From assembly GCA_026196105.1 (NCBI GenBank), contig JAPHRK010000041.1:11970-75969 (forward strand): 64,000 bases of DNA, written 5' to 3'. Shown in pieces: positions 27,797 to 54,700 of the stretch. The stretch is from Rhodospirillales bacterium. Lineage in GTDB: Bacteria; Pseudomonadota; Alphaproteobacteria; Rhodospirillales; JAPHRK01. The position numbers and the translations under genes were made by a program. Below the pieces are notes generated by a model, which saw only the letters and a list, made by a program, of their open reading frames with translations, did not search any database and had not been told where the DNA came from. Each line of letters begins with the position of its first letter. Within the stretch, counting starts at the first letter, position 1.

Positions 27797-27798
27797 AA

Positions 27799-28500: not shown

Positions 28501-28501
28501 T

Positions 28502-30844: not shown

Positions 30845-30877
30845 TAGGGAGTAATCTCGCGGGTGATTTTAATATCT

Positions 30878-31732: not shown

Positions 31733-31853
31733 GTTGTAATCCTCATCGCATCAATCTTTTAAGTTAGCTAAGTAGTTACCCAATAAGATACTTTTCAAAA
31801 TATGAATATATATTGAATCTTATTCATTTTGTTTTCCACCAAGTAAAATTCAC

Positions 31854-32309
31854 TCAAAGCAACTCATAAGTCGTCTTTTTGCATACGGTTCTTAGAGTAA
31901 AATTTGACCTGATCCGAGCAACACCAGGGAGGCGGGAGAGGGCGGATTTGTGGATACGTTCGTAGTCTTCTGGGCCACCCGCGGCTACTCTGAGCACATA
32001 ATCTGAATCTCCTGCCATTAAGTAACATTCCATAATATCTGGGCAATTTACCACGGCAGCTTCAAAGGCGTTGAGGGCTTCTTCGCTCTGACTGTTGAGA
32101 GAGATTTCTACGAAAATATTTGAAGAGCGACCAATGGCTGATTGATTGACCACCATGGCGTAACCTTCAATGATCCCTTCTTCTTCTAAATTTTTCACTC
32201 GCCGCAAACAGGCTGAAGGTGAAAGGTTTATGCGTTCGGACAATTCAGCATTACTGATCCGTCCGTCACTTTGCAAAATACTCAAAATAGCCTGATCAAC
32301 GGTATCCAT
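31854..32309 (-). CDS. Lrp/AsnC-family transcriptional regulator (AldR-like, divergent from ald)
   Basis: HTH region DQAILSILQSDGRISNAELSERINLSPSACLRRV plus a C-terminal RAM-like domain. Divergent from alanine dehydrogenase, the classic AldR arrangement. Confidence 0.85.
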   Translation of the reverse strand: MDTVDQAILSILQSDGRISNAELSERINLSPSACLRRVKNLEEEGIIEGYAMVVNQSAIGRSSNIFVEISLNSQSEEALNAFEAAVVNCPDIMECYLMAGDSDYVLRVAAGGPEDYERIHKSALSRLPGVARIRSNFTLRTVCKKTTYELL

Positions 32310-36697: not shown

Positions 36698-38014
36698 TCA
36701 TTTAATAGATTGCATTGAGATAAATTTCTCACCAATTACGCGCGCTTTAAAGGTTTTGAGGTCTGTCTCTTGAGGGGATTGCCATGAAGATGAAAAAATC
36801 TTTATCGAATGTTGATGCCTACCAGATTGGATTAGGGAGGAAGCGTTATGGCGGTAATAGGAATCAGCTATTGAGAGTTGGGGGAGATTGTTACGTAAAT
36901 AGGTTACCCCATAATTACTCACAATCAATTTACCAGTTTCTCTCTTTAAAACATTTGTGGCCTGCTCCAAAGGAGAAGGTGGAAGTATCAATGTAATCGA
37001 TGATACCAAAATAGCGCCTTGCACAAGTGTTACCCCCATCAAAATTACTCTTCCTCCTCGAATAAGATAAAGGGAGATCAAAATGGATGGTAAGAGGAAA
37101 TGGCGTAGATTTTCCGGGTTTTGGGCAAGCACCGTCCATAGGATCGCTGCTAAGGTCGTTATGAAAAGCGGAGACTTTATTTCACTCCGAAATATAGAAA
37201 TAATGATCCCCAGGATTAAGGCCAGCAAAGTGGCAGCCACGGTTTTTTCTTGTGAAAGCCCTGCGACCCAACCAGGACGTTCCGCCTCGGCTACCATTGA
37301 GGTGTTTCCCCAAATCATAAAATGCCCCTCGGTAAATCTCCAAGCTTCATAAAAAAGAGCTTCACCTTCCCATAAGATAACCCACCCAAAGATTAAAGCG
37401 ATCGTTACGATGCTGGAGATAACAAGGGGGAAAGCTTGTTTGCGCTCTTGAAATAGGGAAGCAATAATCATAGCGGCAACTACGACGACGAACGAAGGGC
37501 GGCAGGCCAAAGCTAGTCCTACAATAATACCTGCGCCTTTATAATAGCTCTTCGCTAACAGGCCCAATCCAAGTAAAATGAAGGCTATACCCGTACTATC
37601 TGAAAGCATACTCAATCCTACCAGTGGTAGGAAAGGTTGAGTGAGTGTGGCCCAGAACGCTAACAATACCCCGCTTTTAGATGCGCCATAGGCATTGGCC
37701 GTCCAAGCGGCAAGCGGGGGGAGGCTTATGGCACCTATTAGGGAGAGGTAAAAGGTCGCCTCTTTAGGGGTGAGACCAAAAAAATGAAGTAGTTTTCCAA
37801 AGGCGATAAACCCCGGATAGGCGGGAAAGTGGGGACGAAATTCTAAAACGCTGAACCTTTCCACTCCCAGGGTAAAAAAGTATGCATCATCGGAGGGAAT
37901 GGATGGTGGAAAGGAAAACAGCCAATAAGCTATGAGGGCGTAGGCGACGGCGCTTACCCCCCAGGCGAGTTGTGAAGTTTTGGCTTTACTTGCCAAGAGC
38001 CGCCAAGACCGCAC
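36698..38014 (-). CDS. Polytopic membrane protein, possibly a GT-C-fold glycosyltransferase (ArnT/PMT-like)
   Basis: About 11 hydrophobic helices. An acidic DD pair (PSDDAYFF) follows directly after TM1, as in GT-C first loops. No stronger motif. Overlaps the upstream gene by 29 nt. Confidence 0.3.
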   Translation of the reverse strand: MRSWRLLASKAKTSQLAWGVSAVAYALIAYWLFSFPPSIPSDDAYFFTLGVERFSVLEFRPHFPAYPGFIAFGKLLHFFGLTPKEATFYLSLIGAISLPPLAAWTANAYGASKSGVLLAFWATLTQPFLPLVGLSMLSDSTGIAFILLGLGLLAKSYYKGAGIIVGLALACRPSFVVVVAAMIIASLFQERKQAFPLVISSIVTIALIFGWVILWEGEALFYEAWRFTEGHFMIWGNTSMVAEAERPGWVAGLSQEKTVAATLLALILGIIISIFRSEIKSPLFITTLAAILWTVLAQNPENLRHFLLPSILISLYLIRGGRVILMGVTLVQGAILVSSITLILPPSPLEQATNVLKRETGKLIVSNYGVTYLRNNLPQLSIADSYYRHNASSLIQSGRHQHSIKIFSSSWQSPQETDLKTFKARVIGEKFISMQSIK

Positions 38015-38540
38015 TCATTGCTTTTTGGTAAGCTTCTGGGTCGGCGGGTTTTTGGCCGACCCCAAAAACCCCTGGATTGCCAATGGCGACAAGACATTGG
38101 CGTAGCCCTTTTTCAGCGGCTTCACGCTGCACTCCGGAAAGGTTGCCAGCCATGGAGTCAAAAAAGCGTTTTGATTTTACCACCAAGACTTTAGCCAATT
38201 GGTAGTCGTCCAGATGTTTGGCTCCGGCGGAGAGACGATGGGAAATTTCTGCCGCAAATACACGATGCAAAGCGGCAGACACCGCCTTGGCATCTTTGGC
38301 GCTTATGGCGTCGGACAGGTTTTGTTTAATTCCCTTGTCAAGATTCGTATCGAGATAATCGATCTCTTTGGCTACGGTGTCTAAAGCTGTTTGAGCCGCG
38401 CCATAATCGCTGTCGTTGATTGCTTTGAAAATAGCCTCACGAGCATCAATTAAAGGTTCTTTTCCTGCTGCTGCGTAGGAATAGGCCTGAGCCTGACCGG
38501 AAACAAAAAAAGTTAAAAGCAGAATGGCGATAAATCTCAT
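37986..38540 (-). CDS. Secreted all-alpha protein of unknown function
   Basis: Signal peptide MRFIAILLLTFFVSGQAQA|YS. Ala/Lys/Asp-rich and helix-like. The start at 38540 lies 13 nt after the upstream stop, so I prefer it to the track's 38603. Confidence 0.5.
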   Translation of the reverse strand: MRFIAILLLTFFVSGQAQAYSYAAAGKEPLIDAREAIFKAINDSDYGAAQTALDTVAKEIDYLDTNLDKGIKQNLSDAISAKDAKAVSAALHRVFAAEISHRLSAGAKHLDDYQLAKVLVVKSKRFFDSMAGNLSGVQREAAEKGLRQCLVAIGNPGVFGVGQKPADPEAYQKAMSAVLAALGK

Positions 38541-38553
38541 GTCTTCCTCCCCA

Positions 38554-39945
38554 TCAGGCGACGCTTTGGGTCTCAATGACCGTGCGTTCGCTCCGATGTT
38601 CATAAATTTCTTCCTGGTGGTCTTGGCCGGTTATCAGGCTTCTGGCCGCCATGTCCCCCGTTTCCATCGCGGTATCGGTAAAAATATAACGGAAAGTTCC
38701 TTGCCGACCACATAGAATTAGGTTTTTAAACTGGGATAAGTGATTCTTAGCGTTGGCGCGTCCCTTTTCATACCCCACCCGGAGCAAAGGATAAGCTTGG
38801 GTTGCGCGGGTGCTGAAATATTCACCTGTGGCTTTGGTGGCGTCCATCCCCATTTTAGTAAGGACCTCACAGGCCATGGGAAACATTTGCTCATCTGACA
38901 TTTCCCAAAGATCACTGCCGGGATCACAGGGGATTTCCAACATGGCTGAGGTATGACCTTTAGGTGCCATGAAAGGTGAACGACGTTTGGGTTCCTGTAG
39001 GCGGGTTGCCATGATGCTGGGGTCCGACAGATACTGCCAGGTGCAGTCCGACAGGTTGTCCATTTCCAGAGGCATATTAAAAAATCTCAGGCCTCGGTAT
39101 TTAAGGTCGCTTTTACCACCGGTCATTTTGACCATATTGGGCAGGGCGAGGGTTGAGATTACAGCGTCAGCTTTAAATGTTTTTCCTGCGGCTTGAACCG
39201 AGCTTACGCTGTCTCTATTAAACTCAATATTCTCAACCGCTGTCTTAGTAAGAATTTTTCCACCCTTGGCCTCAATGCGCTCTGCCAATCTATCGAAGAT
39301 GACACCGAAACCGTGTTTGGGATAACGATAGCTGCGGGCATAGGTGCGCGGGGTATCGTTGCCCATGGGTAAAAGCCGTTTAGCTACGTCCTTAAGGTCA
39401 ATTAGGCTGATCCGTTGTCCGGCCCAATCTGAAGAAAGGTCTTTGGGGTCAATACCCCAAAGCTTCGCGGTATAACCTTCAAAGAAGTTTTCATAAAGTG
39501 TGTCACCGAAGCGACTAGATATCCAGGTAGCAAAGTTGTCGTCGATGTGTTTCCTGAAAGGTAATGTGAGCAGGTCACCAGTTGCCCCCATCAAGAGTGA
39601 CGTTGGCGCTGTGCGCAACAAGTTTCCCAGGGCGAGGGGGTAATCATAGGTCCGGCCGCGAAACCGAATGACGCTTTTGCGCATGGCCGTTAGAAGGTCA
39701 TCGCCAACCAGGTTTTCGACCAATTTGAGCAACTCGGCATTGTGGGTGATGAAACGATGTCCACCATAGTCAAAACGGTAGGTGCCGTGTTTACCCTCAA
39801 AAATCGTTGTGCCGCCTTGCCCGCCCTTTTTGTCGCTTTTTTCGAGAACTGTGACCTTAATCCCGGCTTCGAGCAGTCGCCAAGCAGCCGTCAATCCGGC
39901 GGGGCCAGCTCCCAAGATGAGGACAGATTCAGGTCTTTTGGGCAT
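38554..39945 (-). CDS. FAD/NAD(P)-binding oxidoreductase (amine-oxidase / UDP-galactopyranose-mutase-like fold)
   Basis: VLILGAGPAGLTAAWRL...VLEKSDKKGG dinucleotide motif and C-terminal GRQGTFRYIFTD. Overlaps the 3' end of the FTR1 gene by 17 nt. Confidence 0.65.
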   Translation of the reverse strand: MPKRPESVLILGAGPAGLTAAWRLLEAGIKVTVLEKSDKKGGQGGTTIFEGKHGTYRFDYGGHRFITHNAELLKLVENLVGDDLLTAMRKSVIRFRGRTYDYPLALGNLLRTAPTSLLMGATGDLLTLPFRKHIDDNFATWISSRFGDTLYENFFEGYTAKLWGIDPKDLSSDWAGQRISLIDLKDVAKRLLPMGNDTPRTYARSYRYPKHGFGVIFDRLAERIEAKGGKILTKTAVENIEFNRDSVSSVQAAGKTFKADAVISTLALPNMVKMTGGKSDLKYRGLRFFNMPLEMDNLSDCTWQYLSDPSIMATRLQEPKRRSPFMAPKGHTSAMLEIPCDPGSDLWEMSDEQMFPMACEVLTKMGMDATKATGEYFSTRATQAYPLLRVGYEKGRANAKNHLSQFKNLILCGRQGTFRYIFTDTAMETGDMAARSLITGQDHQEEIYEHRSERTVIETQSVA

Positions 39946-40747
39946 AACCGCGATTCCAGAAAAAGAGGAAGGTTCCTAGATAAAGCACCCAAACTGAGAA
40001 TTGAATAAGAGTAGGAGAAGCATTGTAGCCAAATAAGGCGCGCAGGAAGGTGCCGAACGTTCCCCGATCATCAAGGATGTGCGAAATATCAAAAATTCCT
40101 TCAGCGATAATTGGTACGATGTGAACCGCTTGCATCATGTTGACCGCAGAAGATAGTAACCCTGCTGCGATTACAATGATTAATAAACTGGTATATTTGA
40201 AGAAAGGCGCAATCGCGACCTGTTTGGTGCCACGCATCAGAGCCCAGACGAGGGCGATGGAGAGGACAATGCCGAGTACAGCTCCTATGAGACCGTCTTC
40301 CAAACTGATACCTTGGCCGGAATGAAGCAGAGCGGAGAAAAATAGCACGGTCTCAAACCCTTCCCGCAGTACGGCAATAAAAGCGAGGAACACCATGCCC
40401 CACAGGTTACCAGTCGAAATGTGATCTTCTAGGTCGCGTTTGACCTGATCTACCTGGGCCTTTGCTTGTCTTTGCATCCAAATGGCCATGTATGTGAGAA
40501 CGATGGAAGCAAATGACAGGATGAAAATCATCAAGAAATGTTGATAACGCTCATTGTCAAATTGGTCGATCACAACCTGGAACAGGAAGGCTACGAGAAG
40601 GGAGACCACCAAGCCAGCAGCCACGCCAAAATAAATGTATTTGGCATAGTGGCGGGCGTTAAGTTTGGTTAGATAGGAGAGAATAATTCCTACCAACAAA
40701 AATGCCTCGAGCCCCTCGCGAAAGGTAATGAGAAAACTGGCAAACAT
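39929..40747 (-). CDS. FTR1/EfeU-family high-affinity iron permease
   Basis: Two signature motifs, REGLE (FREGLEAFLL) and REGFE (LREGFETVLF), with about 7 TM helices. The start is 1 nt after the stop of the upstream cytochrome gene. Confidence 0.85.
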   Translation of the reverse strand: MFASFLITFREGLEAFLLVGIILSYLTKLNARHYAKYIYFGVAAGLVVSLLVAFLFQVVIDQFDNERYQHFLMIFILSFASIVLTYMAIWMQRQAKAQVDQVKRDLEDHISTGNLWGMVFLAFIAVLREGFETVLFFSALLHSGQGISLEDGLIGAVLGIVLSIALVWALMRGTKQVAIAPFFKYTSLLIIVIAAGLLSSAVNMMQAVHIVPIIAEGIFDISHILDDRGTFGTFLRALFGYNASPTLIQFSVWVLYLGTFLFFWNRGYAQKT

Positions 40748-40748
40748 A

Positions 40749-43700
40749 CTAGGGGCGCTCCAGGGAGGTATTGAGTTGTGTCATGATCACTGCTTGGGGG
40801 TTGGGCAATTCGGGGTAGGTTTTACGCACTGCATCAGTCACCCACTGTGGGTAGATGCGGAACATGAGTTTGACGTCTACTTGCAAGGGATAATTAAGCT
40901 CGGATGGTAAATCAAAAAGTTCATCTCGATGGCCATTTGCCGGAATTTTGGTATCTTTAAGCATTTTTTCATAACGCCAGAAGAGCAAGCCTACAGGTTT
41001 ACCATTTTTGTCTCCAAAGACCTTTTGGAACATGCGGGCATCTTCAGGAACTATGCCTTTGTCATCCATCTTGCCATGTTCCAGCACGACCTTACTTGTA
41101 CTGTCTTTGACGGTTATGTCGAGCCACAGTTGGCGGAAATCTGCAACGCCGGTAGGTAGGGCGTGCCCAGCTCCAATATTTCTCACTCGTATGGCCAGTT
41201 GGCCATCCTTTTCCATACGCCCGGAAAGTTCAGCGGCTGATTGCAGCAATTCGATACTCATTTTCGCCAACTTTTCATTGCGTAGGCCGACAAGGTGATG
41301 ATTGGCCCCAGTGAATTGGTGAGTGACAACGTTTTCCTTCACCCGACCGCCATCAGTGGAGATACCCGGTATGTTTTGGCCGATTTTTTTAATATCACCA
41401 TGCATGTGACAATCGATGCAGCTGCGATGTTTACTGGGGTCGGATGGGTTGTTGTAGTCGGATTTCTCCCACTCCCCATAAGTGTCGACGATTAGACTAC
41501 CGGAACCGGGTGCAAACTCATTGTGACAAGTGCTACAGAGTTCTGAATCTTTATAGAAGGGTTGTAAATATGATTTGGTGTGAACTTCCGGCTTAGCATT
41601 GATTTGCTGGTTGCCAACCCAGTTTAGGATAGGGTTGCTGTTGTTCTCGAAGAAATACTGCTCGCGGTCTTTCACATTGACGGTGAAGCTGGCATTAGCA
41701 CCGCCTTTAGAACTCGACGCGCTTTCAAGTTTGGTAATGCGGTGGCAGAATAAACAACCAGTGCCTTCATCCAGATCGGGTTCATTTTTTTCAAGTGCTT
41801 CAAAAAGAGTCTTTCCACCTTTCTCGAACATATGTCCCTTTTCAATGGTTGCAGTCAGGCCGGAGAGCAATCCTTGTGGATGGTGACAACCCATGCACCA
41901 TTTACGGAACTCTTCACCTTCGGTTTGTGCCGCGACTTCCTCAACCACTTTATAATAGGGGTTTGAATCTCCCATCAGGCGATGGAGTGAGTCCGCCCAT
42001 TGATCAAACATATCAGAATGACACTCAGCGCAAGCAGCGGAATTTACCCATTCCTTCTCGTGGATCACTTTGCGCTCGTCGTCGAGGCGCAGCCATGTTG
42101 AGGTCAAAGGTAGATTACCTTTGGAATTTACGAAAGTGTGGAGGTCTTCCATCTGGGCGATGATGTTTTTAGGCGGTTTGTCCAGGTTTGGTTTGTCTGC
42201 TCCGTCTCGCGGATCATGGCCCATGCCACCTTGGGTACCTTGTATAATTCGCAGGTAATCTCCGACAAAATCCCCCGCAACCATTTTGCTTAGGTCTTTG
42301 TGACCTATCACCGCGTTTTTATAAATATCGGTAGGGGTGGAATTATAGAGATAACCGTTTGTAAAATTAAACCCGTCTACGTGACAACTTTGGCAACTCA
42401 TCCAGAAGTCGCCAGCGATAGGGAACTGTTTTGATTTATCGGTATTACCGCTATTGAAAGTAGTTTTACCACGCCTCAGCGCGGCGGGGATGGGATCTTT
42501 TTCGACCAGTTGACTAAACTCGCTTTTTGCCAGTTTAACTCGGGAGAAGGGGCCTTCGCCACCACGGTTGAGCTTAACCAAATCTAGGCTCATGGCGTTT
42601 TGGACGAAAATATCTTGCCTGGAAACCACCAACCCCCGAGGGTTAGACCCGGGGATATGACGAAAAATTTGCATGGCTTTAGCTCCGCCCTGATTGAGCT
42701 TGCCTTTGCGTCGGTTGCTCCGTTTCTTTTTCTTTTTTGTGATTTCGGTGCGGCGTAACAGGTCAAACACCATCAGGTCTTCACTGCCTGCAAGAGTTAC
42801 GTAGACCTTTTTGCCATCTTCAGAAAAAGCGGCGTCGTGAGGGTTAGAGACGATGCGTGTGCGATTACCAGTATCGATAATATTGATCTGTTTAAACAGA
42901 TGTTTACGCCGGTCTATAAGCTCGCGTTCTTGCCCTTTGTCGAGAGCAAGCAAGGAGACGGAGGGAAAAATAGTGGATTGAAATTGAAAGGGGTGGTCGA
43001 AGTTCCACAAAACGTGTGGCAACCACGCCTCGTTTTCGTCGGGGCTGACGGCAATGTCGTCAAGAATACGCGGAACCCCTTGGGAAACAAATTCATCAGG
43101 GTCTTGGGTTTCATGCAAGACGATGGTTTTTAGCAAAATAGGTTTTTTTTGTCGGGTATCCCACAAAGAAACTTTACCAACCATAGCATGGGTGATCAGA
43201 AGCCGCCCATCGTTTAAAAGTGCTAAACCACGCGGGGTTTCTTCAACTTTGATATTATGAATGATGCCTTTTTTTTTGTTCAGTCCAATCAGACGATGGT
43301 CTTCAAATAGCGCAGTCCAAAAAATGTTGTTTTTTGGGTCATAAACAATGCCAAAAGGACGGTGACCAACAACCACTTCCTTTTCAACTCTGTTAGTTGC
43401 TAAATCAATAAAAACAACACGTCCGCCTGTATAGTCGGTTACCGCCAAAAGATTTTTTTTTTCATCTAAAGCAATGCGGCGTAGTTCACCACCGACTTGG
43501 ATTTCAGCCAGACGTTTTCCACTTTCCCGTTCTATTAGGGAGACCGTCCCGGTATCGAAGTTTGCGGAATAAAGAGTTTTGCCATCTTGGGAGAGATGTA
43601 AAGAGCTACTTTCCGTTGCGGCAAATGCTGGAAGGCTTAGAGCAACGATGGCAAAGAAAAAAGGAATTACCCAAGCGGTGATCTTCAGCATGGACCAGCG

Positions 43701-44156
43701 TTTTGCATGGAAATAAACAAAAAGGGCCATGGGAATGGAAGGTAATAAGTGAGCCCAATAAGCAATTTGCCCCAGAACGTCACCTCGATTACCAAACAAA
43801 GCCAAATAAAACCCACTAACCATCATAATAATCAAAATAACTTCTATAATGCGCCCTGTTTTTCTCAGGAAAGGTTTCGGATGCATCTTAAGGGATTCGC
43901 GATGGGCCAACCAAAAGGGCACGATGAACAGGGGTACCAAGAAAAATGACGCCAGGAAATGGATTAGCAAAGTAGATTTGGTAAATTGCCAGGAAAAACC
44001 AAAGCCATCCCACAACATAACCCCACTAACAGTAAGAAAATAAAGAATAAATTCGGCATATTTATGTTTATAACTCACCCGTTCCCACAGGGAAGGGCGT
44101 GGGATGACCACGTCTACTGTGTATGGGATTTCCGTATGTATGGTTTTATCTAACAT
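40749..44156 (-). CDS. Membrane-anchored beta-propeller / hexahaem c-type cytochrome fusion protein
   Basis: aa 1-185: 5 predicted TM helices with His pairs. aa ~190-560: YVTN/cytochrome-d1-like propeller repeats (TLYSANFDTGTVSLI, LAVTDYTGGRVVFIDL, FGIVYDPKNN). The C-terminal part has six CxxCH motifs (CQSCH, CAECH, CMGCH, CLFCH, CSTCH, CIDCH) and GAGHALPTG. Confidence 0.8.
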   Translation of the reverse strand: MLDKTIHTEIPYTVDVVIPRPSLWERVSYKHKYAEFILYFLTVSGVMLWDGFGFSWQFTKSTLLIHFLASFFLVPLFIVPFWLAHRESLKMHPKPFLRKTGRIIEVILIIMMVSGFYLALFGNRGDVLGQIAYWAHLLPSIPMALFVYFHAKRWSMLKITAWVIPFFFAIVALSLPAFAATESSSLHLSQDGKTLYSANFDTGTVSLIERESGKRLAEIQVGGELRRIALDEKKNLLAVTDYTGGRVVFIDLATNRVEKEVVVGHRPFGIVYDPKNNIFWTALFEDHRLIGLNKKKGIIHNIKVEETPRGLALLNDGRLLITHAMVGKVSLWDTRQKKPILLKTIVLHETQDPDEFVSQGVPRILDDIAVSPDENEAWLPHVLWNFDHPFQFQSTIFPSVSLLALDKGQERELIDRRKHLFKQINIIDTGNRTRIVSNPHDAAFSEDGKKVYVTLAGSEDLMVFDLLRRTEITKKKKKRSNRRKGKLNQGGAKAMQIFRHIPGSNPRGLVVSRQDIFVQNAMSLDLVKLNRGGEGPFSRVKLAKSEFSQLVEKDPIPAALRRGKTTFNSGNTDKSKQFPIAGDFWMSCQSCHVDGFNFTNGYLYNSTPTDIYKNAVIGHKDLSKMVAGDFVGDYLRIIQGTQGGMGHDPRDGADKPNLDKPPKNIIAQMEDLHTFVNSKGNLPLTSTWLRLDDERKVIHEKEWVNSAACAECHSDMFDQWADSLHRLMGDSNPYYKVVEEVAAQTEGEEFRKWCMGCHHPQGLLSGLTATIEKGHMFEKGGKTLFEALEKNEPDLDEGTGCLFCHRITKLESASSSKGGANASFTVNVKDREQYFFENNSNPILNWVGNQQINAKPEVHTKSYLQPFYKDSELCSTCHNEFAPGSGSLIVDTYGEWEKSDYNNPSDPSKHRSCIDCHMHGDIKKIGQNIPGISTDGGRVKENVVTHQFTGANHHLVGLRNEKLAKMSIELLQSAAELSGRMEKDGQLAIRVRNIGAGHALPTGVADFRQLWLDITVKDSTSKVVLEHGKMDDKGIVPEDARMFQKVFGDKNGKPVGLLFWRYEKMLKDTKIPANGHRDELFDLPSELNYPLQVDVKLMFRIYPQWVTDAVRKTYPELPNPQAVIMTQLNTSLERP

Positions 44157-44253: not shown

Positions 44254-44290
44254 AAAAAGTAAAACCCGAAGAGCTTTTGCCCTCCGGGTT
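44251..44290 (-). terminator. Putative intrinsic terminator/attenuator after the 681-aa protein gene
   Basis: Minus strand reads AACCCGGAG-(10-nt loop)-CTTCGGGTT, a 9-bp stem with one G-U pair, followed by TTTTACTTTTT. It starts 47 nt downstream of the stop at 44337. Confidence 0.45.
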
Positions 44291-44336
44291 CTATCCAAGC
44301 ATACAAAGTAACGGAGAGAATCACTTCATAGCCATT

Positions 44337-46382
44337 TTATTTAGCAGCCATCACCTTTACCCGACGGGCCATGGTCATCGCAGTGCCAAATTTACCACCA
44401 GCCTTGGTGACCTGTGCGACGCCATCACCGTCAGTGTCCCCTTCAGCACTTCCGTTAACAACATTTTCGCCGGAATCCCCGAGCCATTCAGCTAGTTGCA
44501 TGCCTTCGCGAATATTGCGGCCATTGATGACGGTTTGGAACCAAGCGACGTAACGCTGGGTTAGGTTCGCTAAATCAAGAAGAGTTTCGTTTTCACCTTC
44601 TGAATTACGCAAGGTCAACATGGCGCTGCGTAGGCCAGCGCTGATAGCCGCGGCGGTGTAAGGGGTATGAACCGTCGGCATACCTGGTGCATCGGCGTAA
44701 GTGCCAATGCCTTTATCAAACATCTTAGCTTCAATGGTTAGGAAGAGTTTACGAGCAGCATTCTTATACTTGACGTCTTTTGTGGCGATGAAGGCCGCCG
44801 AGAGACCATGAACCACGGCAAATTGGGTACCAATAGATTTACGATCATTGCCACCCTTGCCCAAAAGATAACCGTCGTGGGCGAGGCCGTCTTTATCAAT
44901 CAACTGAGCGAGGATAAAGTTGGCCTGACTTTTGATAATCTCCAAAGCCCTTTGGCCACGTTTTGTATTGAGGCTTTCACCAGCGTCTGCGGAAGCATAA
45001 CCCACAGCTAAAGCGTCTTGAGAACGTTGGAAAATTGAGAGGGCTTGAAGAGCATAGGCCGCATCATAGGTGGTAACCCTGTCGCTCATCTTACCGTCGA
45101 AACGATCCACTAAGGTGCCAGCTTTGTTGTTAAAGTGAAGTGCGTCCAGGTTTTTGAAGGTGGCGTTTGTTAGCACGCTGACAGTGGAAAAAATATCGTT
45201 GGCGGCTACATCGTTAGAGATATCTTCATCCTTATTTAAGGCAGGAGCTGCAGCGAAGGGGGCGCCATCAAATACTGCTAGGAAGGCCGGGTTTTGAGCT
45301 TTGTTGACGGAGCGTTGATCGCTGAAGGCATAAACTTCAGATAGAGGCCAAAGCAACATCCAGGTATCGCGTAGGGTAGAAGCACTGTCGGTTACTTTAA
45401 GATTGCCAATGGCTTTCACGCCGTTAGCCATCTTTTCAGTCACAACGACTTTATGAGGGAACCAGACCGCGCCTTTTGCGGGGTCATAAGAGGCTGTAAG
45501 CTTAGCACCAAGTTTTTTGCCATCGTAGCCAAGTTGATTTTGCAGGGTGATCAAACGATCCCAAATGATCTCTGAAAGGATTACGCCATTGAAACCATCT
45601 GCGGAAGAAACGCCTAGAGCATGTTTGCCGTCCTGGTCCATCGTCGCACTTTCTGCTTCGACTTCTTCGTCACCTTTAATAGTGTGCATGCCGCCCAAGA
45701 AGTCCTGAGCCCACATGACGTCTTTCAGCATCTGGCCTCCAGCAGCCGCAGGGTTGAAAGATTTATCCATCGTGGATTCTTTCCAAGCCAAGGTTGCATA
45801 GTCGCGGAAGTATGCAGGAACGTCTATTTTTATATTCTTCTTCTTACCGTGAGCCATGATGATTTCTGCTTCGTCAGCGCTGACCACAGAAGTGTTCACA
45901 GCCTGTCCGAACTCAGGTATGCCTGAGGCATAGGGGAAGGTGATAGGATACATATTGAGTGGAATTTCTTCAGCGGGGAAGGAGACTGATTTCGCTAATT
46001 CGATCACCCGCTTACCAAGACTTTCCAGGCTACCGCCACGTGCTTTGTTGACCGGGCCGTTAACGATATGAGGACCCATTTTGGATTGATAATTAACCGC
46101 GTACATAGCTTCTTCGGAGTATTCATAACTCTCAATACCAGCGGTATAATCAAAGGGGGTTGGAACATTTAATTTGTTAGGGTCGAGTACATCCAGATCG
46201 AGTCCCAGACCTTCGGCTAAAGGTTCACCAGAAAGCTCAAATTCCGTATAGGCCAGGAACCCCCCAGCAGGATCAAAAGACTTGTCCAGTACTTCAACTT
46301 TGACACTGGAAGGATCAGCCAGAGCGATGGTTGACAGCGCCATCGCTGAGGCAAAAGAAATCAATGCGGTTTTTTTCAACAT
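44337..46382 (-). CDS. Secreted 681-aa protein of unknown function
   Basis: Signal peptide MLKKTALISFASAMALSTIALA|DP. No motif I can assign. It is the first gene downstream of the stronger Fur-like box. Confidence 0.6.
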   Translation of the reverse strand: MLKKTALISFASAMALSTIALADPSSVKVEVLDKSFDPAGGFLAYTEFELSGEPLAEGLGLDLDVLDPNKLNVPTPFDYTAGIESYEYSEEAMYAVNYQSKMGPHIVNGPVNKARGGSLESLGKRVIELAKSVSFPAEEIPLNMYPITFPYASGIPEFGQAVNTSVVSADEAEIIMAHGKKKNIKIDVPAYFRDYATLAWKESTMDKSFNPAAAGGQMLKDVMWAQDFLGGMHTIKGDEEVEAESATMDQDGKHALGVSSADGFNGVILSEIIWDRLITLQNQLGYDGKKLGAKLTASYDPAKGAVWFPHKVVVTEKMANGVKAIGNLKVTDSASTLRDTWMLLWPLSEVYAFSDQRSVNKAQNPAFLAVFDGAPFAAAPALNKDEDISNDVAANDIFSTVSVLTNATFKNLDALHFNNKAGTLVDRFDGKMSDRVTTYDAAYALQALSIFQRSQDALAVGYASADAGESLNTKRGQRALEIIKSQANFILAQLIDKDGLAHDGYLLGKGGNDRKSIGTQFAVVHGLSAAFIATKDVKYKNAARKLFLTIEAKMFDKGIGTYADAPGMPTVHTPYTAAAISAGLRSAMLTLRNSEGENETLLDLANLTQRYVAWFQTVINGRNIREGMQLAEWLGDSGENVVNGSAEGDTDGDGVAQVTKAGGKFGTAMTMARRVKVMAAK

Positions 46383-46474: not shown

Positions 46475-46493
46475 GCAAATGATTATTAATATC
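46475..46493. promoter_or_regulatory. Fur-box-like 19-mer upstream of the 681-aa protein gene
   Basis: GCAAATGATTATTAATATC matches GATAATGATAATCATTATC at 14 of 19 positions. It lies 93-111 nt upstream of the start at 46382. Confidence 0.4.
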
Positions 46494-46541: not shown

Positions 46542-47603
46542 TTATGAATCTTCGCCCTCTATCTTCAGTACGATTTTTCCGATGTGGCTTTTGCTTTCGA
46601 AGGACGTTTGGGCTTTGCCTATTTCCTTCAGTGGGTAAGTTTCAGCGACCAAAGGTTTGACTCGTCCATTTTCTATATGAGTCATGAGATTTCTAAAAAC
46701 CTCCGGTTCGAGAACAGTACATCCGAAGAAACGGAGGTCTTTCAGGTAAAGTGTTCTAACATCAAATTCAACGATCGAACCACCAATTGCCCCTGCGACT
46801 GCATACCGCCCTCCTGGGCAAAGAGTGTCCAACAGTGAGGGCCATTTCTGACCAGCAACGAGATCGAGCACAACGTCGATACTATCTTTCCCTAAGAGTT
46901 CTACATAATCATCATCCCTACTGAGAGTTTGATCAGCACCTATTTCTTGAAGTGTGATGGCCTTTAATGGGCTTGTGACGGCAATAACTTCAGCGCCCCG
47001 AGCCTTGGCAAGTTGAACCGCAGCAGACCCAACGCCACCTGATGCACCAGTGATCAATACTCGTTCTTCGGAGGTTACCCGCGAGCGTGTCAGCATATTT
47101 TCAGCCGTTGAGTAGGAGCAGGGAAATGAAGCAAGTTCTACATCTTCGTAGGTGCTGTTGATGGCATGTGCATGACGAGAAGCGACAACTGTGTATTGAG
47201 CGAAACCCCCGTTACATTCAGACCCAAAATACCAAGGTTTATCGAGAATGTTGTTGTTAACTTCACGTATACATGGCTCAATAAGTACTCGCTCTCCAAT
47301 GCGTCCTTTGTCTACATGATCTCCTACGGAAACAATTTTACCGCATACATCGGCTCCCTGAATAAGCGGAAAATTCAATGCTTGTCCAGACCAACTGGCA
47401 TCGTGATCCTCATTATCACCCTTTGAATACCATGCCGTCCGGGTATTGATGTCTGTGTTGTTCACCCCTGCAGCGGATACCCTAATAACAACATCGTTTG
47501 GTCCGGGTTGAGGCGTAAGTATATCGTTTCGATATTCCAGCATCTCAGGGCCGCCATGTCCTAGTAAAAGAACACCGCTCATTTTATCTGGTATTCGACT
47601 CAT
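46542..47603 (-). CDS. Medium-chain (Zn-type) alcohol dehydrogenase / quinone oxidoreductase family protein
   Basis: MDR pattern: GVNNTDINTR, ITGASGGVGSAAVQLAK, C-terminal GKIVL. The start is taken at MSRIPDK (47603). The track start is 47648. Confidence 0.75.
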   Translation of the reverse strand: MSRIPDKMSGVLLLGHGGPEMLEYRNDILTPQPGPNDVVIRVSAAGVNNTDINTRTAWYSKGDNEDHDASWSGQALNFPLIQGADVCGKIVSVGDHVDKGRIGERVLIEPCIREVNNNILDKPWYFGSECNGGFAQYTVVASRHAHAINSTYEDVELASFPCSYSTAENMLTRSRVTSEERVLITGASGGVGSAAVQLAKARGAEVIAVTSPLKAITLQEIGADQTLSRDDDYVELLGKDSIDVVLDLVAGQKWPSLLDTLCPGGRYAVAGAIGGSIVEFDVRTLYLKDLRFFGCTVLEPEVFRNLMTHIENGRVKPLVAETYPLKEIGKAQTSFESKSHIGKIVLKIEGEDS

Positions 47604-47974
47604 AACGTCCGCCTGTGAAATTTTTGAATTGTGAATTGATACGATCAACCCACATGATTGACTAGTGGAATCGTCTCCTATGGGTTAAGAGCGGGCCAAT
47701 GATTTAACTTCAGCAACTGGTTGTGGTATCTCTATTCTTGAGGCCTTGATATCAAGAATGATAACCTCGAATGAAATCGTACCATGATTGGTATGAAGCA
47801 ATCGGTATGGGACGTCTGAGCAAGTTTGAGTTGTTGTGTTTAGTAGGCCAGAGCAATGAATTCAAAGTAGCCTAGTTTTAGATTTGGGCTACATTAGTGG
47901 TTTTCGACGCAGGAGAAGACTCAAAAAACTTACAATAAAACAATGTGTTACGAAGATTTTGTGCAAAAAGTAAA

Positions 47975-48066
47975 TGGCGGACAGGGAGGGATTCGAACCC
48001 TCGGAGCCCCGTGAAGAGCTCGGCGGATTAGCAATCCACTGGTTTCAGCCACTCACCCACCTGTCC
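47975..48066 (-). tRNA. tRNA-Ser (anticodon GCU), class II with long variable arm, CCA encoded
   Basis: Folded by hand: acceptor GGACAGG/CCTGTCC, 3-bp D stem, anticodon stem GTGGA/TCCGC with loop TTGCTAA, variable arm GAGC...GCTC, T arm GAGGG-TTCGAAT-CCCTC, discriminator G, then CCA. Confidence 0.9.
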
Positions 48067-48738: not shown

Positions 48739-48776
48739 CATTTTTGGTGCGCTAAGACAAAAAAGAGGAATGGGCC

Positions 48777-51700
48777 ATTTCTATTAAAAATTTAACTCCT
48801 GATAACGATGAAGCAGGGAGGCAATTTGATGCTGTTTTTGAGGCTTCAAGCGGTGCTCCCCTCGTTATTGGAGAAGGAGCTTGGTTGCTTAAAGCTGATT
48901 TCGTAAGAGACGGTAGCGACCTTATTCTCATCGGCAGCGACGGTACAGAAATCCTGATTACGGGATATTTCAACGTTGCTTCTTCCCCTGATTTGCAAAC
49001 CCCTGGTGGAAACCTCCTTAAAGCTAGCTTGGTAGAAAGCCTCGCTCGTGAAACTGGGGATGTCCAAGTTGCGCAAGCAAACCAGCAAGGTGCAACAGAT
49101 GCTTCGCCCTCCCAGCCCATTGGGACTGTGGCGACAGCAGAAGGCCTGGTTGAAGTCATTCGCGCCGATGGCACCAAGGTCGAAGTCAAAGAAGGCGATC
49201 CCATTTTCCAAGGGGATGAAATTATCACTTCAGATGCTGGCACAATCGGCATCACTTTCATTGATGACAGTTCTTTCTCTCTCGGCCCAGAGGGAAGAAT
49301 GATCATTGATGAAATGGTTTATGACCCCGGCACCCAAGACGGTAAATTCAGCGGAAATCTCGTCCAAGGTGTTTTCTCTTTTGTTAGCGGACAAATTGCT
49401 AAAACCGGCCCCGATGCCATGACCTTGACCACCCCGGTCGCCACCATTGGTATTCGGGGAACCAAAGTTGCAGGTAAAGCGGCGCAAGAAGGCGAAGAAA
49501 ACACCATAACCTTGCTTGATGAATTGGATGAAAATGGCAATCCAATCGTCGGTGAGGTGTCGATCACGACAGAAGGCGGAACAGTCGTTCTTGGTGCCTT
49601 TGGTCAAACTGTTTCTATGACCTCAGCATTCTTGCCACCTCCATTGCCATTCGTGATGTCACAGGCTGAAATTGATGAGGCTTATGGAAATACTCTTGCT
49701 GCAAATCCTGTTCAAGAAGAAGCTGTTACTGAACCTGATGGAACTGGAATTCAGGAAGTTGCTGAGCAAGCTCGAGATAGTTTAGCTGATACAATTTCTG
49801 AACAAGCAGAGGTGTTTGAAAGCTATAAAGCCGTTGCCCAAAGTATTTATAAACCAGTTATTCTTCAATATGATAGAGCTGACGTTGCTGAGCTCATTGG
49901 GGCTGATAGTCCTGACTATAGTAGTGAAATTGCAAAGTTTCTAGCAGTTGTTTCTTCAGCATCAAGCGCAGCAACAGCAGCTGGTGATGCCGAAAATCTC
50001 GCTTCAGCAAAATCAACCACTCTTGGTGTTGAAATTGTTGCTAAAGCTACTGCGACGAATGTTGGTTTAAGTACTACTGAAGCGCAAGAATTAGCTTCGG
50101 TTGTGACGGCCTCTATGAAGGCGCTTGGTGCTGCCGGGTCTATTTCAGCAACCGCTTCATCAATTTCAAAAATGGCGCTGGCTGCGGCTGCTGAAGCCGG
50201 TAAAGGGACTTCAATCGATCCAGAAATTCTTGCCGCATTGGAAGCTTCTGTTTCTAGCTTGCAAACCGCTGCAACAAAAGTTGCAACAATTGTAACTGCA
50301 GCAATAACCGCCACAGATAGTGTTTGGGCCACAGCCTTAACCGCAGCTAAAGCTGCAAAGGCTTTGAACCAAAGCGTCGCTCAGATTTTATCTGATGCTA
50401 AATCAGCGGTAACGACAAACTTTTCCAATGAAGTGAATAACGCCTTAACAGGGAAAGGGGTTGCTTATACTGAACTCTCAGGTCTTGTTGACGACGTAAC
50501 TACCCACATCACAACGGTTACAACAAAAATGCAATCAGCTCCTGTATCTGATGCAATGACATCCGCAGGGGCTGCAGCCAAAACAGCTGCGACCCAGGCA
50601 GATGCAACGGCTACGGCTGCTTCTGATACCTTAGCTGCTTCTAGCGCAGATGCCATGTTAGCTGCCGCTGAAGTTGCTTTTACAGCAGCAACGGCTGCTG
50701 AAGCCGCTCGCGCTGAAGCCGATGCAGCTGTTGATATTAATGTAATTGGTGCCGGGCTTGATGCCAGTTCTTTTGCCTTTTTCCAACAAGCTATTGCCTT
50801 GGATTCATCGGCTGAATCTCAAGCTGCGGAAGCAACGGCTGGTATTACGGCTTCTGTGAATGCACTCGAAGCTGCTGAAGGTTATCTTGATGGGACAGCT
50901 CAAGGCAAAGTTTTTGGCTTTGCCCAAGAAAATACCATTTCACTGAAATCTACCCTGATCACTGATGGCACATTAGATGCCTCTACAGATACCGTGAACG
51001 CCAATGGCGCAATTGCGGTAACTATTGATGGTAATGCATTCTCATATAACTTCACTTCAGGTCAAACGGTCAAAGCTGTTTATGATGGACTTGTTACTGC
51101 GATCAATAATGATGCCAATATTAATGGCATTGTTACTGCTGCAAGTGCATCTGATTTTGGTCCAGTAACACTGACCGCTGACATTCCAGGACAAGCCTAT
51201 ACGGTTGTTGATACTGGTTCGACGACTGACCTTACATCCGATCCAACTATTGTTACAGTCCATACAGGTCTTGCTGTTGCTGATGTCGTTGGTGTTGTCA
51301 TAAATGGAGAGCGGGTCACTTACGAAGTTACCGCTGAGGATGTTAAATCTCCCCTCGCTGTCGTTCGGGATGGGTTAGTCTCTGATCTTCAAGCAACTGG
51401 AGCCGTCACTGCGACGGTTGAAGCTGTAAGTAGCTCAACAGGTGACTTTACGGTTACTCTGACTAAAGACACGACCAGTGCTGATATTGTAATTACTTCT
51501 CCTGATACGGATGAAGTAACCATAAGCTCATATGACGTGACCTCCACAGTGACGATTGATGCAACCCTCGCTGAAGGTGATGTAGTTGGGGCCGTGATTA
51601 ACGGGACGACCGTTACATATACGATTACAGCTGAAGATATGCTTCTGGATGACCCAATGGTTGGAGTCCAAGAAGCTCTCATTGATTCCATTGCGGAAGA

Positions 51701-54700
51701 CCCAACCGTTGGCGCCCTTGTCAGTGCTGCTACGGGTACGGCAGCGGGAACCATTGTTATTACATCGGCTACAGCTGGAACTAATTTTACGGTCCAATCT
51801 TCTGATGCTGCTGAAGCAACTGTTTCGACAACAACAATCACGACTGTTTCTGTTGATAATTTTTTAGAGGCTCTTGATTCCGTTGGAGTAACGATTGAAG
51901 GTACCACGGTTACCTATACAGTCCAAGCTGATGACCTTCTCAGCTCATTAGAGAAAGTTCGTAGTAGTCTTATTGATGCAATTAATAGTGACACTGATAT
52001 TAATGGTGATGTTACGGCTGCAAATGGGGAAAACCCAGACCAAATTGCTTTGACCGCAGATAATGCAGGAACGCCTGTTACGATTGTTTCAAATGATGAT
52101 GCCACTCTTACTGATGGCCAGGGCGCTACTTATAATCTACAGCTTGCTGCTGCGGCCCAAGCTACCGCTAAAACCAACGCAGACGGTGCTGCCAGTGATG
52201 TATTAGCAGCCAGAAGCGTTCTCGCTGATGCCTTGGTAACAAGATATATTGAAACAGCTAAGGCTGAGGCTTATGCCGATGCCTTGATTTTGGCAACAGA
52301 TGCTCTTGCTGATGCCAATGCTCTCGTTACAACAGCGACAGCTAATGTCACAACGGCAACACAAGCCGTCACAGATGCGACGACTGACGAAGAGGCATCT
52401 GCTGCAAATCAAGGTTTAGCAAATGCTCAAGCTGAACTAACTTTTGCTAATCAAGTTAAAGCGTTGTTCCAGGGTGCTTATGATAAAGCTGTTACCAATA
52501 ATACTGACGCAATCGCTGCTAAAGGAGCCGCAGAAACAGCTGTAACCAATGCTCAAGCTGAAGTCGATGATTTTAATGATATTTATCAGGGTAAGCTTAC
52601 TTCTTACTTAGAAAAAACCACTGAACTCTCTGACGCTCAATCCGAAATGGCTTCGGCAAAAGGTGCCCTGGAAATTGCTCAAGCAGCAGCAGAAGCCCAA
52701 TATCAAGCCACCCTTGAGGTTGAGGTTGAGGCTGTTCAGGATTTGATGGCGCTGGTCAAAGCGGCAGCGGCTGAGGCTGCGGCAAACGCTGAATTGGCAA
52801 AAGCAGAAGCGACGACGGATAATCCTGAACCAAATAAGCACACGGCTCAAGAAGCTGAAGACGCCGCTTACAAAAGTTATCAAGAAGCTCAAGAAGCATT
52901 CGATCAAATTGCCGCTGTGGTTCGTGCCAATGAAGGTGATACCGACGACAATGGTGCTTCTGTTGTTTCAACGGCAAGCGGAACCAGAGGCGGAAGTACT
53001 GAAGCTACTGTAACCCTCAGTGGTACCATTGAAGTTGGTGATGTTTATACCCTGACTGTTTTCGCTAAAGATGACACCAGCACGGAAGCAACCGCAACAC
53101 ACACGATTGCTAATACGGGTGAGACACTGATTACAATTGCTCAAGCTCTTGCCGGCCAAATAAATGGTGCAGCGAGTGTAAACACTCTGGTAACAGCTGC
53201 AGTTGACGGAACAACGGGTGTCATAACAATTACAGCAGATACTGTTGGCGTTGACGGTGATTTTGCATTCTCTATTCGGGCAGATGGTACTAATAAAGAG
53301 GGTACTATACCTGATGCCAACGATTTAGAAGGTGGTTATTTTGATGTTGTTTTCCGGACAACAGATACCGTTGCGACGGATGATCCTGTAGATTTTGCTA
53401 GCACGAGCCAAGCGGCAATTGCTTTACGTGCTTCGCTTTTAGATTCTGCAAAATCAACTTATGACCTTGCTGCTGAATATCTAACAGCGGCTGAATCTTC
53501 ATATAATTTGGCAGTTGCGGCTTCAGATGTTGCTGACCTGATTAACCCAACCCCAAGTTCTCCTGAAGAAGCATTCGCAGCTTTGGAAGCCAAACAAGCC
53601 GCTGCTAAGGAAGCTGATGAAGCGGCTAAAGCGCAAGCTGAAGCAGAAGCTGCTGCAAAACTTCTTGCGACTCAAAAGGCCGCTGAAAAAGCAGCAGCAC
53701 AAGCGAAAGCGGCTGAAGCTGCATCATCGAAAGCGGATGCCGCTGAAGCACAACAAGTTCTTGCAGAAGCTCAAGTTGCTATAGCTAAGACTTATGCAGA
53801 TTTAGCGGCTGCTGCTGAAGCTGTCGCTACACAAGCTGAGATAGATGATGACTTTATAACTGCTTCTGCTAAAGCAGCTGAAGCTTCTGCTTATGCTGCT
53901 TTAGCTCGTGTTGCTGCTGATACGGCAACTGCGGCTGCAAGTGAAGCAAAAACATTAGCTGATGCTGCTACGGCTGATGCTGATGGCATGGGCGGTACTG
54001 CTGCAACTCAAGCTGAACGTGCAGCCACGGCTTCTGGTAAAGCCGCTGTTGCTTCCGGTAAGGTTGAAAGTTCTGCGACTGTGGCAGAAGCATCAGCAGT
54101 CGATGCTAAAGCTGCAGCTGATTTGCAAGAAGCTGAAGATAGCGCGGCTCAATTGGCAGAAGACGCCGCTGCTGCGGCAAAAGCTGCTGCAGCAGAAGCC
54201 GCGAAAGCAGCTACTGATGCTGCTGAACAAGCTGAATTAGATAGAGTAGCAGAACAAGAGGCTGCCCTTGAGTTAGTTACGGGGCTAGCAACAAAAGCGG
54301 CAGATAAAGCAACTGATGCTGAAGACTTTGCGGTTATCGCTTTGCAGGCTGCAAAAGATGTTAATACGACTAAAGCTGAACAATATGCTGAATTTGCCAG
54401 AATTGCTGCTGCAGAAGCAGAAGCCGCTGCCGATGCTGCGGCTGAAGCCGCAACTGGTAAAGGTTCTGCTGCTCTGGCAAAAGCTAATGAAGCTGTGGCT
54501 TCTTCTAAAGCTGCTCAAACCAGTGCAGGTACAGCAGATGCTGCCAGTGAACTGGCTTCGGGTTATCAAGAAGCTGCGGATGCGTGGACCGATGGATCAT
54601 CTTCCTCAGATCGTTTTGATGCCCAAAAAGCTGCGGCAACCGCTGCTGCTGCTGCTTCTGCAGCGGCTAGCTCTGCTAGATCGGCTTCTGATGCCTATGC

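Follow-up and report, generated by a model that had tools for sequence, protein, structure and literature searches.

A putative bc-type haem conduit encoded beside an FTR1-family iron permease in a Rhodospirillales genome

What might a protein do that carries paired histidines in its membrane helices, a β-propeller and six c-type haem sites on a single chain? Such a protein is encoded in the stretch of DNA analysed here (the window), 64,000 nucleotides from a Rhodospirillales bacterium (GenBank assembly GCA_026196105.1, contig JAPHRK010000041.1, positions 11,970 to 75,969 of the forward strand). The 1135-residue open reading frame (ORF) is real: a homolog search returned a deposited protein identical to its product, the hypothetical protein P0001 of a Rhodospirillales metagenome-assembled genome (MAG), and the nearest genome locus lies in a Thalassospiraceae MAG (91% identity). 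A preliminary description of the window, made from its letters alone, dwelt on the architecture of this cytochrome and overlooked its most informative feature, a conserved iron-uptake context consisting of an FTR1 permease gene and Fur boxes. Taken together, the histidine-bearing membrane module of four transmembrane helices (4-TM), the pairing of that module with a c-haem chain and the linkage to FTR1 under Fur-like boxes point to a bc-type transmembrane conduit for periplasmic iron redox chemistry that would serve FTR1 import, with outward electron flow favoured. We give this proposal an even chance of being right.

Domain anatomy, fusion and the four conserved histidines

In the full-length AlphaFold2 model (predicted local distance difference test score (pLDDT) 85.4, predicted template modelling score (pTM) 0.79) four long membrane helices and a low-confidence fifth hydrophobic segment are followed by a propeller (residues 186-549), a mostly helical haem domain (residues 558-957) and a C-terminal β-sandwich (residues 975-1132). 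The roughly five hydrophobic N-terminal helices of the preliminary description are recovered in this model as helices 31-47, 56-91, 95-121 and 127-150 plus the hydrophobic segment at about residues 157-179. The predicted cytoplasmic loops carry five and three Lys/Arg residues and the other loops none or one, a distribution that fits an N-in topology and therefore puts the haem c part in the periplasm, where the remainder of the protein had been placed from the start. Attachment of c-type haem requires a periplasmic location.

The membrane module was also modelled separately. Residues 1-158 gave a four-helix bundle (pLDDT 90.1, pTM 0.78) with the same helices as in the full-length model. As first described, helices 2 and 4 bear two histidines each, spaced 19 and 14 residues apart, namely His66/His85 and His136/His150. 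Comparison of homologs showed that these four residues are invariant in 74 fused homologs and in the separately encoded (split) genes described below, and the 19/14 spacing is kept both in those genes and in very distant variants, whereas the other N-terminal histidines (residues 7, 31 and 92) are not conserved. Only nine or ten columns of the module are invariant (W56, H66, F81, H85, G101, G115, G122, H136 and H150 among them), and with a mean column identity of 35-39% the module is far less conserved than the periplasmic part. Of the four histidines, His66 and His136 are placed towards the periplasmic face of the membrane, and His85 and His150 towards its cytoplasmic face. An arginine is conserved after both cytoplasm-side histidines (HR and HAxR), as are Ser-Gly pairs on helices 1 and 3, a pattern that would be expected for haem propionate contacts and close packing of haem. 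When the two helical hairpins were compared by hhalign, His66 aligned with His136 (72% probability, E 3.5e-5), which suggests an ancient internal duplication; the repeat is seen at the profile level only and was not significant in single-sequence comparison.

A word-index homolog search with the 4-TM module alone returned nothing, the index being too coarse for so short and divergent a query, and an exhaustive HMMER profile search was used in its place. Among 1.84 billion representatives this search found 78 clusters only, nearly all of them stand-alone proteins of 150-200 residues or N-termini of the same cytochrome. The distant relative P0187 falls just below the cut-offs of DUF4405 (25.4 vs 26.7 bits) and Ni_hydr_CYTB (23 vs 30.1 bits) and has a weak match to PepSY_TM (3.4e-4). 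Against all PDB sequences the module profile matched one protein only, FdnI, the dihaem cytochrome b556 of E. coli formate dehydrogenase-N (1KQF chain C; Ni_hydr_CYTB/DUF4405 superfamily), at E 0.005, and hhalign gave an 81% probability for this pair. FdnI is likewise a 4-TM protein with four histidines; the TM1-TM2 hairpin of the module aligns with its TM3-TM4 hairpin, and His66 with its haem bP ligand His155. The match is weak and partial, however, with only 44-49 residues aligned, and the FdnI histidines lie on TM1, TM2 and TM4 (two on TM4) with a spacing of 14 rather than the 19 seen here.

The module is fused or adjacent to the cytochrome in 78 of 80 genome loci that carry cytochrome homologs, the set on which the locus counts given here are based. 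Natural variants lacking the propeller retain the same pairing: P0162 (719 residues) consists of the module and the haem domain, P0178 (606 residues) of the module and the pentahaem part only, both the propeller and the first-haem linker domain being absent, and P0195 (362 residues) is a further fusion of the 4-TM module to a haem domain. P0162 and P0178 therefore identify the c-haem chain as the constant partner of the module, which is always accompanied by a haem chain; FTR1 by itself is never its partner. Most likely, as judged from these sequence features, the module behaves like a dihaem cytochrome b that fits no established family. The preliminary description had proposed just such a module wired to a periplasmic c-haem chain, and the invariance and spacing of the histidines, the pairing with a multihaem cytochrome and the FdnI match all speak for it; the Foldseek comparison, which gave generic four-helix bundles, does not.

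Homologs of the cytochrome fall into two size classes, one of about 1110-1170 residues and one of about 950-1020 residues that lacks the N-terminus. In Alkalimarinus and Motiliproteus a separate gene stands before the one for the short form and encodes a 165-188-residue protein homologous to residues 1-156, with the four histidines at the 19/14 spacing. In Vibrio and Moritella several genes separate the small 4-TM gene, placed directly before FTR1, from the gene for the cytochrome. The two parts are fused in 44 of the 80 loci (those of alphaproteobacteria, Campylobacterota and a few gammaproteobacteria) and split in 34 (mostly gammaproteobacteria, including many Aeromonas species). Since other lineages encode the 4-TM module as a separate gene of about 160 residues, what had been taken for an unusual single-polypeptide design is instead a lineage-specific fusion of a two-gene pair. 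The single-chain aspect is incidental, and the preliminary interpretation is supported in part.

The fusion would have joined the two modules through the signal peptide of the cytochrome. The separately encoded periplasmic proteins begin with ordinary Sec signal peptides at the position of helix 5, and helix 5 itself follows the same plan, with a hydrophobic core behind a basic n-region and with small residues at -3 and -1. Near its end, Ala177 is found in 60 of 74 homologs and Ala, Gly or Ser at position 179 in 64 of 74. Confidence in the full model is lowest at helix 5 (pLDDT <50). We take helix 5 to be the cytochrome's own retained signal peptide. Because the signal-peptide design includes a conserved AxA, the fused product may still be cleaved, in which case the mature protein would consist of two chains.

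The propeller-like repeats noted earlier form a seven-bladed propeller of 28 strands (residues 186-549, pLDDT mostly >90). TIGR02276, the model of the YVTN repeat, reaches 52.5 bits (cut-off 27.85), and Foldseek matched the domain to 1L0Q (2e-15) and to YncE (3VGZ, 2e-10), with hydrazine synthase beta and NirF also among the closest propeller folds. The likeness to YncE/YVTN propellers thus extends to both repeat and structure. YncE, however, is a stand-alone periplasmic protein without haems, and the invariant blade-5 insert WLPHVLWNFDHPFQFQ is specific to the cytochrome family described here. The E. coli yncE gene is Fur-regulated. The invariant, family-specific propeller segments (EAWLPHVLWNFDHPFQFQ in blade 5, with His381, His388, Asn385 and Asp366) look like a binding or catalytic pocket. 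A very basic loop had also been singled out. This loop exists (TKKKKKRSNRRKGKLNQGG, residues 473-491) as a low-confidence surface loop in blade 6, but it is not conserved in homologs, where its net charge has a median of +2 and ranges from -3 to +12 and its length varies from 5 to 41 residues. Given this variability, we do not count the basic loop as a functional feature.

The six c-haem sites first counted are present as CxxCH motifs at residues 588, 709, 754, 801, 874 and 913. All 12 Cys residues of the protein belong to these six motifs, which are kept in 81 aligned homologs; composition-preserving shuffles contain 0.004 CxxCH motifs on average. The C-terminal 445 residues match the pentahaem plus immunoglobulin (Ig)-like fold of Thermochromatium tepidum c552 (5ZE8; sequence match 2.6e-6, Foldseek E 1.4e-12, TM-score (target) 0.66) and, more weakly, that of MccSep. 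The ExtKL model NF040886 scores 50 bits against a cut-off of 250 bits. In c552 and MccSep/ExtKL (9WT8), as here, a pentahaem domain is followed by an Ig-like domain with a GH-x-x-P-T/D-G loop (10.1101/2025.11.18.688581), whereas the protein of the window has in addition an N-terminal haem, the propeller and the membrane module. MccSep reduces polysulfide by means of a Sec residue and a Cys-ligated haem (10.1101/2025.11.18.688581). Neither Sec325 nor the haem-ligating Cys239 (the distal ligand of haem 2) has a counterpart here. With Val1004 at the position of Sec325 and no Cys outside the CxxCH motifs, MccSep chemistry is excluded, and a MccSep-like polysulfide reductase was therefore rejected as a candidate. 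The invariant or near-invariant His619, His725, His859, His946 and His998, together with His919 and His954, are enough for bis-His ligation of all six haems, which suggests that the c-haem part is an electron-transfer chain.

Gene neighbourhood and Fur-like boxes

The cytochrome gene belongs to a conserved gene set encoding the secreted protein A681, the 4-TM module, the cytochrome, FTR1, a flavoprotein, E205 and the GT-C-like protein G438. The set recurs in Alpha- and Gammaproteobacteria and in Campylobacterota, in at least three gene orders. A681 is encoded in 56 of the 80 loci, the flavoprotein in 52, E205 in 48, G438 in 47 and FTR1, which was counted when within 10 kb of the cytochrome, in 42. 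In the window the FTR1 start codon lies 1 nucleotide past the cytochrome stop codon (junction TAG-T-ATG). The permease matches NCBIfam EfeU at 8e-61 with 205.9 bits, under the 255-bit equivalog cut-off. Pfam and NCBIfam scans of the cluster proteins gave no multicopper oxidase, cupredoxin, EfeO, EfeB, P19/FtrA, FtrB or FtrD partner, and a search of the available literature found no paper on the cluster.

A681 proteins are 57-91% identical across alpha-, gamma- and epsilon-type lineages and have a very acidic, almost invariant N-terminal stretch (YTEFELSGEPLAE..LDLDVLDP..ESYEYSEEAMY). A681 has no Pfam or PDB match, and Pfam scans of 24 A681 homologs were also empty. A681 may be a periplasmic metal-binding protein. 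E205 has no family or PDB match. A PDB sequence search with G438 was empty, and its Arcobacter homolog matches PMT_2 at 6e-7, above the cut-off. The trio on the minus strand at 36698-39945 (the flavoprotein FAO, E205 and G438) has the look of a module for periplasmic glycosylation or lipid-linked sugars.

The neighbourhood varies among hosts. In six Rhodobacteraceae/Kiloniella loci a gene for a pseudoazurin-like type-1 cupredoxin directly follows the fused cytochrome gene and none of the iron-cluster genes is present; the hosts with this linkage are Shimia, Roseobacter sp. SK209-2-6, Celeribacter, Kiloniella and a Rhodobacteraceae isolate. The Vibrio copy adjoins TonB-receptor and FecCD siderophore genes. 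Terasakiella sp. LRMN1 (NZ_CP182348.1; loci L005 and L009) carries two A681-cytochrome-flavoprotein-E205-G438 clusters about 500 kb apart on one chromosome.

A Fur-box-like site, GATATTAATAATCATTTGC, lies upstream of the A681 gene, and no other site in the 64 kb comes as close to the Fur consensus. No match with three or fewer mismatches occurs in the window; the site appears when four to five mismatches are allowed. Of 76 related loci, 36 have Fur-like sites ahead of the cluster. The upstream windows hold 53 such sites, compared with 2.5 +/- 1.6 in composition-matched shuffles, and the sites are about 15-fold denser there than elsewhere. They occur in lineages far apart from each other, namely Terasakiella, Alkalimarinus, Motiliproteus, Aeromonas, Sulfurimonas, Arcobacter and Halopseudomonas and are missing in the Rhizobiales and Rhodobacterales loci. 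Rhizobiales and Rhodobacterales mostly use other iron regulators. From these boxes the gene set is apparently Fur-repressed.

Direction of electron flow and rival explanations

In the proposed conduit, module 1 (residues 1-156) would hold two b-type haems, the periplasm-side haem being ligated by His66/His136 and the cytoplasm-side haem by His85/His150. Module 2 would lie in the periplasm, with the seven-bladed propeller first, then the one plus five c-type haems and last the Ig-like domain. Electrons would traverse the inner membrane via the two b haems and continue along the c-haem chain. On the favoured outward route they would pass from quinol or a cytoplasmic donor through the b haems and c haems to Fe(III) complexes at or near the propeller, and the released iron would be passed to FTR1, a reductive step like those of FoxB and Fre1. 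The domain anatomy, the conserved histidines, the fused and split forms, the gene linkage and the Fur-like boxes are observations; that the module binds haem b, that iron is the substrate and which way the electrons run are what we infer in this scheme. Outward flow is favoured because the known iron-related dihaem membrane proteins (FoxB, Fre1 and the cytochrome b561 family) are reductases, because the membrane potential would help electron export, and because the cupredoxin-linked variant makes more sense if electrons leave the haems. A cupredoxin could plausibly take up haem electrons but not supply them.

The closest known counterparts in architecture appear to be CbcL (fused) and CbcBA (split), and the closest in function FoxB/FpvG and the redox partners of FTR1. 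CbcL is a fused, and CbcBA an adjacent, pair of dihaem b and multihaem c cytochromes of Geobacter sulfurreducens, both of them bc-type quinone:cytochrome oxidoreductases (10.1101/2021.04.15.440034). In both, and putatively here, a dihaem b membrane domain is fused or adjacent to a periplasmic multihaem c cytochrome and connects the membrane with a haem chain in the periplasm, a likeness by architecture. The protein of the window differs in having four helices with the histidines on helices 2 and 4, in belonging to a very small family without a Pfam model, in its β-propeller, c552-like pentahaem and Ig-like domains, and in its iron-assimilation context (FTR1, Fur boxes) in aerobic marine bacteria, Aeromonas and Vibrio rather than in anaerobic respiration. 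The preliminary description had recognised no characterised protein with this combination. Fusions of dihaem b and multihaem c cytochromes had been described, however, CbcL being one (10.1101/2021.04.15.440034). Thus the general principle of a dihaem b anchor joined to a multihaem c cytochrome is not new, and the novelty is limited to the variant described here.

FoxB is an iron-regulated siderophore reductase with four transmembrane helices and two haems (10.1101/2021.01.28.428567). The four-TM bundle of FoxB/FpvG (PepSY_TM) wraps two bis-His b haems at the membrane edges and passes electrons to periplasmic ferric iron (10.1101/2021.01.28.428567). Unlike FoxB/FpvG, the protein of the window lacks PepSY domains (no Pfam PepSY or PepSY_TM match), its partner in the periplasm is a propeller-bearing multihaem c cytochrome, and the linkage in the window is to FTR1 and not to a TonB receptor. 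The Fet3/Ftr1, EfeUOB and FtrABCD systems share with this cluster an FTR1/EfeU permease with two RExxE motifs that is co-transcribed with periplasmic and membrane redox partners, and FtrD is, like the 4-TM module, a membrane-bound partner (PMC11966278). However, the cluster lacks a multicopper oxidase, an EfeO cupredoxin/M75 protein, the DyP peroxidase EfeB, P19/FtrA, FtrB and the polyferredoxin FtrD, and has instead a b/c haem chain with a propeller and four uncharacterised proteins.

A broader and more tentative proposal, to which we give a little less than even weight, is that the cluster represents a hitherto unrecognised, copper-independent class of FTR1 uptake in which a dedicated transmembrane b/c haem chain, made up of a new 4-TM dihaem family and a propeller-hexahaem cytochrome, carries out periplasmic iron redox chemistry together with A681, E205, the flavoprotein and the GT-C-like protein. 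Such a class would span marine alpha- and gammaproteobacteria, Aeromonas, Vibrio, Moritella and Campylobacterota, whereas copper proteins or peroxidases perform this step in known FTR1 systems. If so, FTR1-type permeases would gain a fourth, haem-based redox partner beside multicopper oxidases, EfeO/EfeB and FtrA/FtrB/FtrD. Carriers of the system include pathogens of fish and humans (Aeromonas, Vibrio, Moritella) as well as abundant marine heterotrophs, for which it could be a ligand-independent iron route in iron-poor seawater or in hosts. The very small, well-delimited family of four-His 4-TM proteins, with its fused and split forms, offers a minimal model of transmembrane electron transfer, and the linkage provides a functional hook for five conserved protein families currently without annotation.

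Several points weigh against the proposed conduit, and some of them favour other readings. FTR1 is absent from 38 of the 80 loci and the flavoprotein/E205/G438 trio from about a third of them; the Fur-like boxes are consensus matches only, in loci many of which are close relatives of each other; and no expression or genetic data for the cluster were found in the literature. Moreover, characterised FTR1-family permeases all work with an oxidising partner, that is, with Fe(II) oxidation (PMC11966278). The FTR1 of the window has both RExxE motifs and no known oxidising partner in its cluster, and the cytochrome gene is translationally coupled to it. The cytochrome could then be a ferroxidase that replaces Fet3, the EfeO/EfeB and FtrA/FtrB partners and FtrD: Fe(II) would be oxidised at the propeller/c-haem module, Fe(III) would go to FTR1, and the electron would travel through the c and b haems to quinone or to the cytoplasmic face. 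FdnI, the sole detectable relative of the module, does move electrons inward, from a periplasmic dehydrogenase to quinone, and the invariant acidic patch of A681 could bind Fe(III) as EfeO does. Inward transfer would oppose the membrane potential, however, and the driving force from Fe(II) to ubiquinone would be small. The cupredoxin-linked variant fits electrons leaving the haems better, all of the iron-related dihaem membrane proteins named above are reductases, and the 38 loci without FTR1 count against a ferroxidase as well. We therefore regard inward flow, the main rival reading, as rather unlikely.

Those same 38 loci, and the six that pair the gene with a pseudoazurin-like cupredoxin only, would suit a reading in which the protein is a respiratory or detoxifying enzyme whose substrate at the propeller pocket is not iron (a nitrogen or sulfur compound, another metal or an organic compound), with the haem chain leading to the quinone pool or the cupredoxin and the FTR1 link being secondary. 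The extremely conserved, active-site-like propeller segments with invariant His381, His388, Asn385 and Asp366 fit this explanation, as do hydrazine synthase beta and NirF among the nearest propeller folds and the presence of a true enzyme, the polysulfide reductase MccSep, in the pentahaem plus Ig-like family (10.1101/2025.11.18.688581). We consider it improbable: the catalytic Sec/Cys of MccSep is absent, with Val1004 in its place and no Cys outside CxxCH, the histidines that suffice for bis-His ligation of six haems suggest pure electron transfer, and both FTR1 and the Fur-like boxes turn up repeatedly in three bacterial classes and three gene orders. A still less probable reading is that the membrane module is no cytochrome at all, its four histidines binding or conducting a metal ion or the module being a structural anchor or assembly factor. 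The module has no significant Pfam match, to any dihaem family or otherwise; hhalign comparisons with E. coli HyaC, CybB, MsrQ and YodB and with a control membrane protein gave no signal; and Foldseek of the 4-TM model returned generic helical bundles (best E 0.57) with no specific match, a result that speaks neither for nor against a cytochrome b fold. On helix 2 the histidines are 19 residues apart, an atypical spacing that exceeds the usual 13-14, and since helix 5 looks cleavable the module would not be needed as a covalent anchor. The missing Pfam and hhalign matches, the generic Foldseek result and the 19-residue spacing also tell against the conduit. Nevertheless, the four-helix bundle carries its His pairs on two helices and at two depths in the membrane, with Arg flanking the histidines and Gly conserved on the partner helices as in FoxB, FdnI and cytochrome b cores; the alignment with FdnI falls at a haem ligand, and the partner of the module is always a haem chain.

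Feature coordinates and the rest of the window

The features of the cluster are collected in Table 1. Antisense ORFs of 95-122 residues are found inside the cytochrome gene (for example at 41795-42163 on the plus strand) and are most likely spurious, because the minus-strand frame is strongly conserved.

Table 1 Features of the cytochrome cluster, in window coordinates unless stated otherwise
Feature	Position	Strand	Remarks
G438, polytopic membrane protein, GT-C glycosyltransferase-like	36698..38014	-	SDDAYFF in first loop; weak Glyco_transf_22 match, 3e-4
E205, small secreted helical protein	37986..38540	-	mature N-terminus YSYAAAGKEP conserved; likely start Met22 of listed ORF
FAO, cytoplasmic FAD-dependent oxidoreductase	38554..39945	-	amine-oxidase/UDP-galactopyranose-mutase-like fold; NCBIfam PRK07208.1-3, named 'hypothetical protein'
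FTR1/EfeU-family iron permease	39929..40747	-	two RExxE motifs (REGLE, REGFE); Pfam FTR1 5.6e-44
Cytochrome ORF	40749..44156	-	1135 residues
C-terminal Ig-like β-sandwich	40752..41285 (residues 958-1135)	-	invariant GAGH998ALPTG; model secondary structure
Pentahaem module	41286..42086 (residues 691-957)	-	CxxCH at residues 709, 754, 801, 874, 913; match to 5ZE8
Linker domain with first c-haem site	42087..42500; CQSCH 42381-42395 (residues 588-592)	-	GDFWMSCxSCH invariant
Seven-bladed YVTN/YncE-type β-propeller	42501..43616 (residues 181-552)	-	TIGR02276, AlphaFold2, Foldseek
Blade 6 basic loop	42684-42740	-	non-conserved
Blade 5 invariant insert	42963-43031	-	EAWLPHVLWNFDHPFQFQSTIFP
Helix 5, probable retained signal peptide or linker	43617..43688 (residues 157-180)	-	ends PAFA|A; conserved AxA, low pLDDT
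4-TM module, putative dihaem cytochrome b	43689..44156 (residues 1-156)	-	AlphaFold2, His conservation, FdnI match
Invariant His codons	His66 43959-43961; His85 43902-43904; His136 43749-43751; His150 43707-43709	-	
Terminator-like hairpin and T-run	44260..44293	-	between A681 and cytochrome genes; 15 pairs, 7 G-C
A681, secreted 681-residue protein	44337..46382	-	most frequent cytochrome partner, 56/80 loci
Fur-box-like site	46475..46493	.	15/19 matches; about 90 bp upstream of A681
Cupredoxin gene in related loci	L011, L012, L013, L015, L024 and L078, about 13250-13860; L083, 12372-12875; L084, 12451-12966		locus-internal coordinates

Upstream of the cluster lie a zinc-type dehydrogenase gene (46542-47648) and a tRNA gene (47978-48066, minus strand), the latter between the dehydrogenase gene and a giant open frame on the plus strand (48756-64000, >5081 codons) that runs off the end of the window and encodes an adhesin-type protein with bacterial Ig, cadherin-like and RTX calcium-binding repeats. 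What seemed to be an ORF-poor region of 16 kb upstream of the cluster is instead this one giant adhesin gene, which is unrelated to the finding reported here. The short opposite-strand ORFs listed within it are probably spurious. At the other side of the cluster, positions 24000-32000 have a G+C content of 0.36-0.38, compared with 0.43-0.50 elsewhere, and a negative GC skew at 28-32 kb; this segment may be horizontally acquired.

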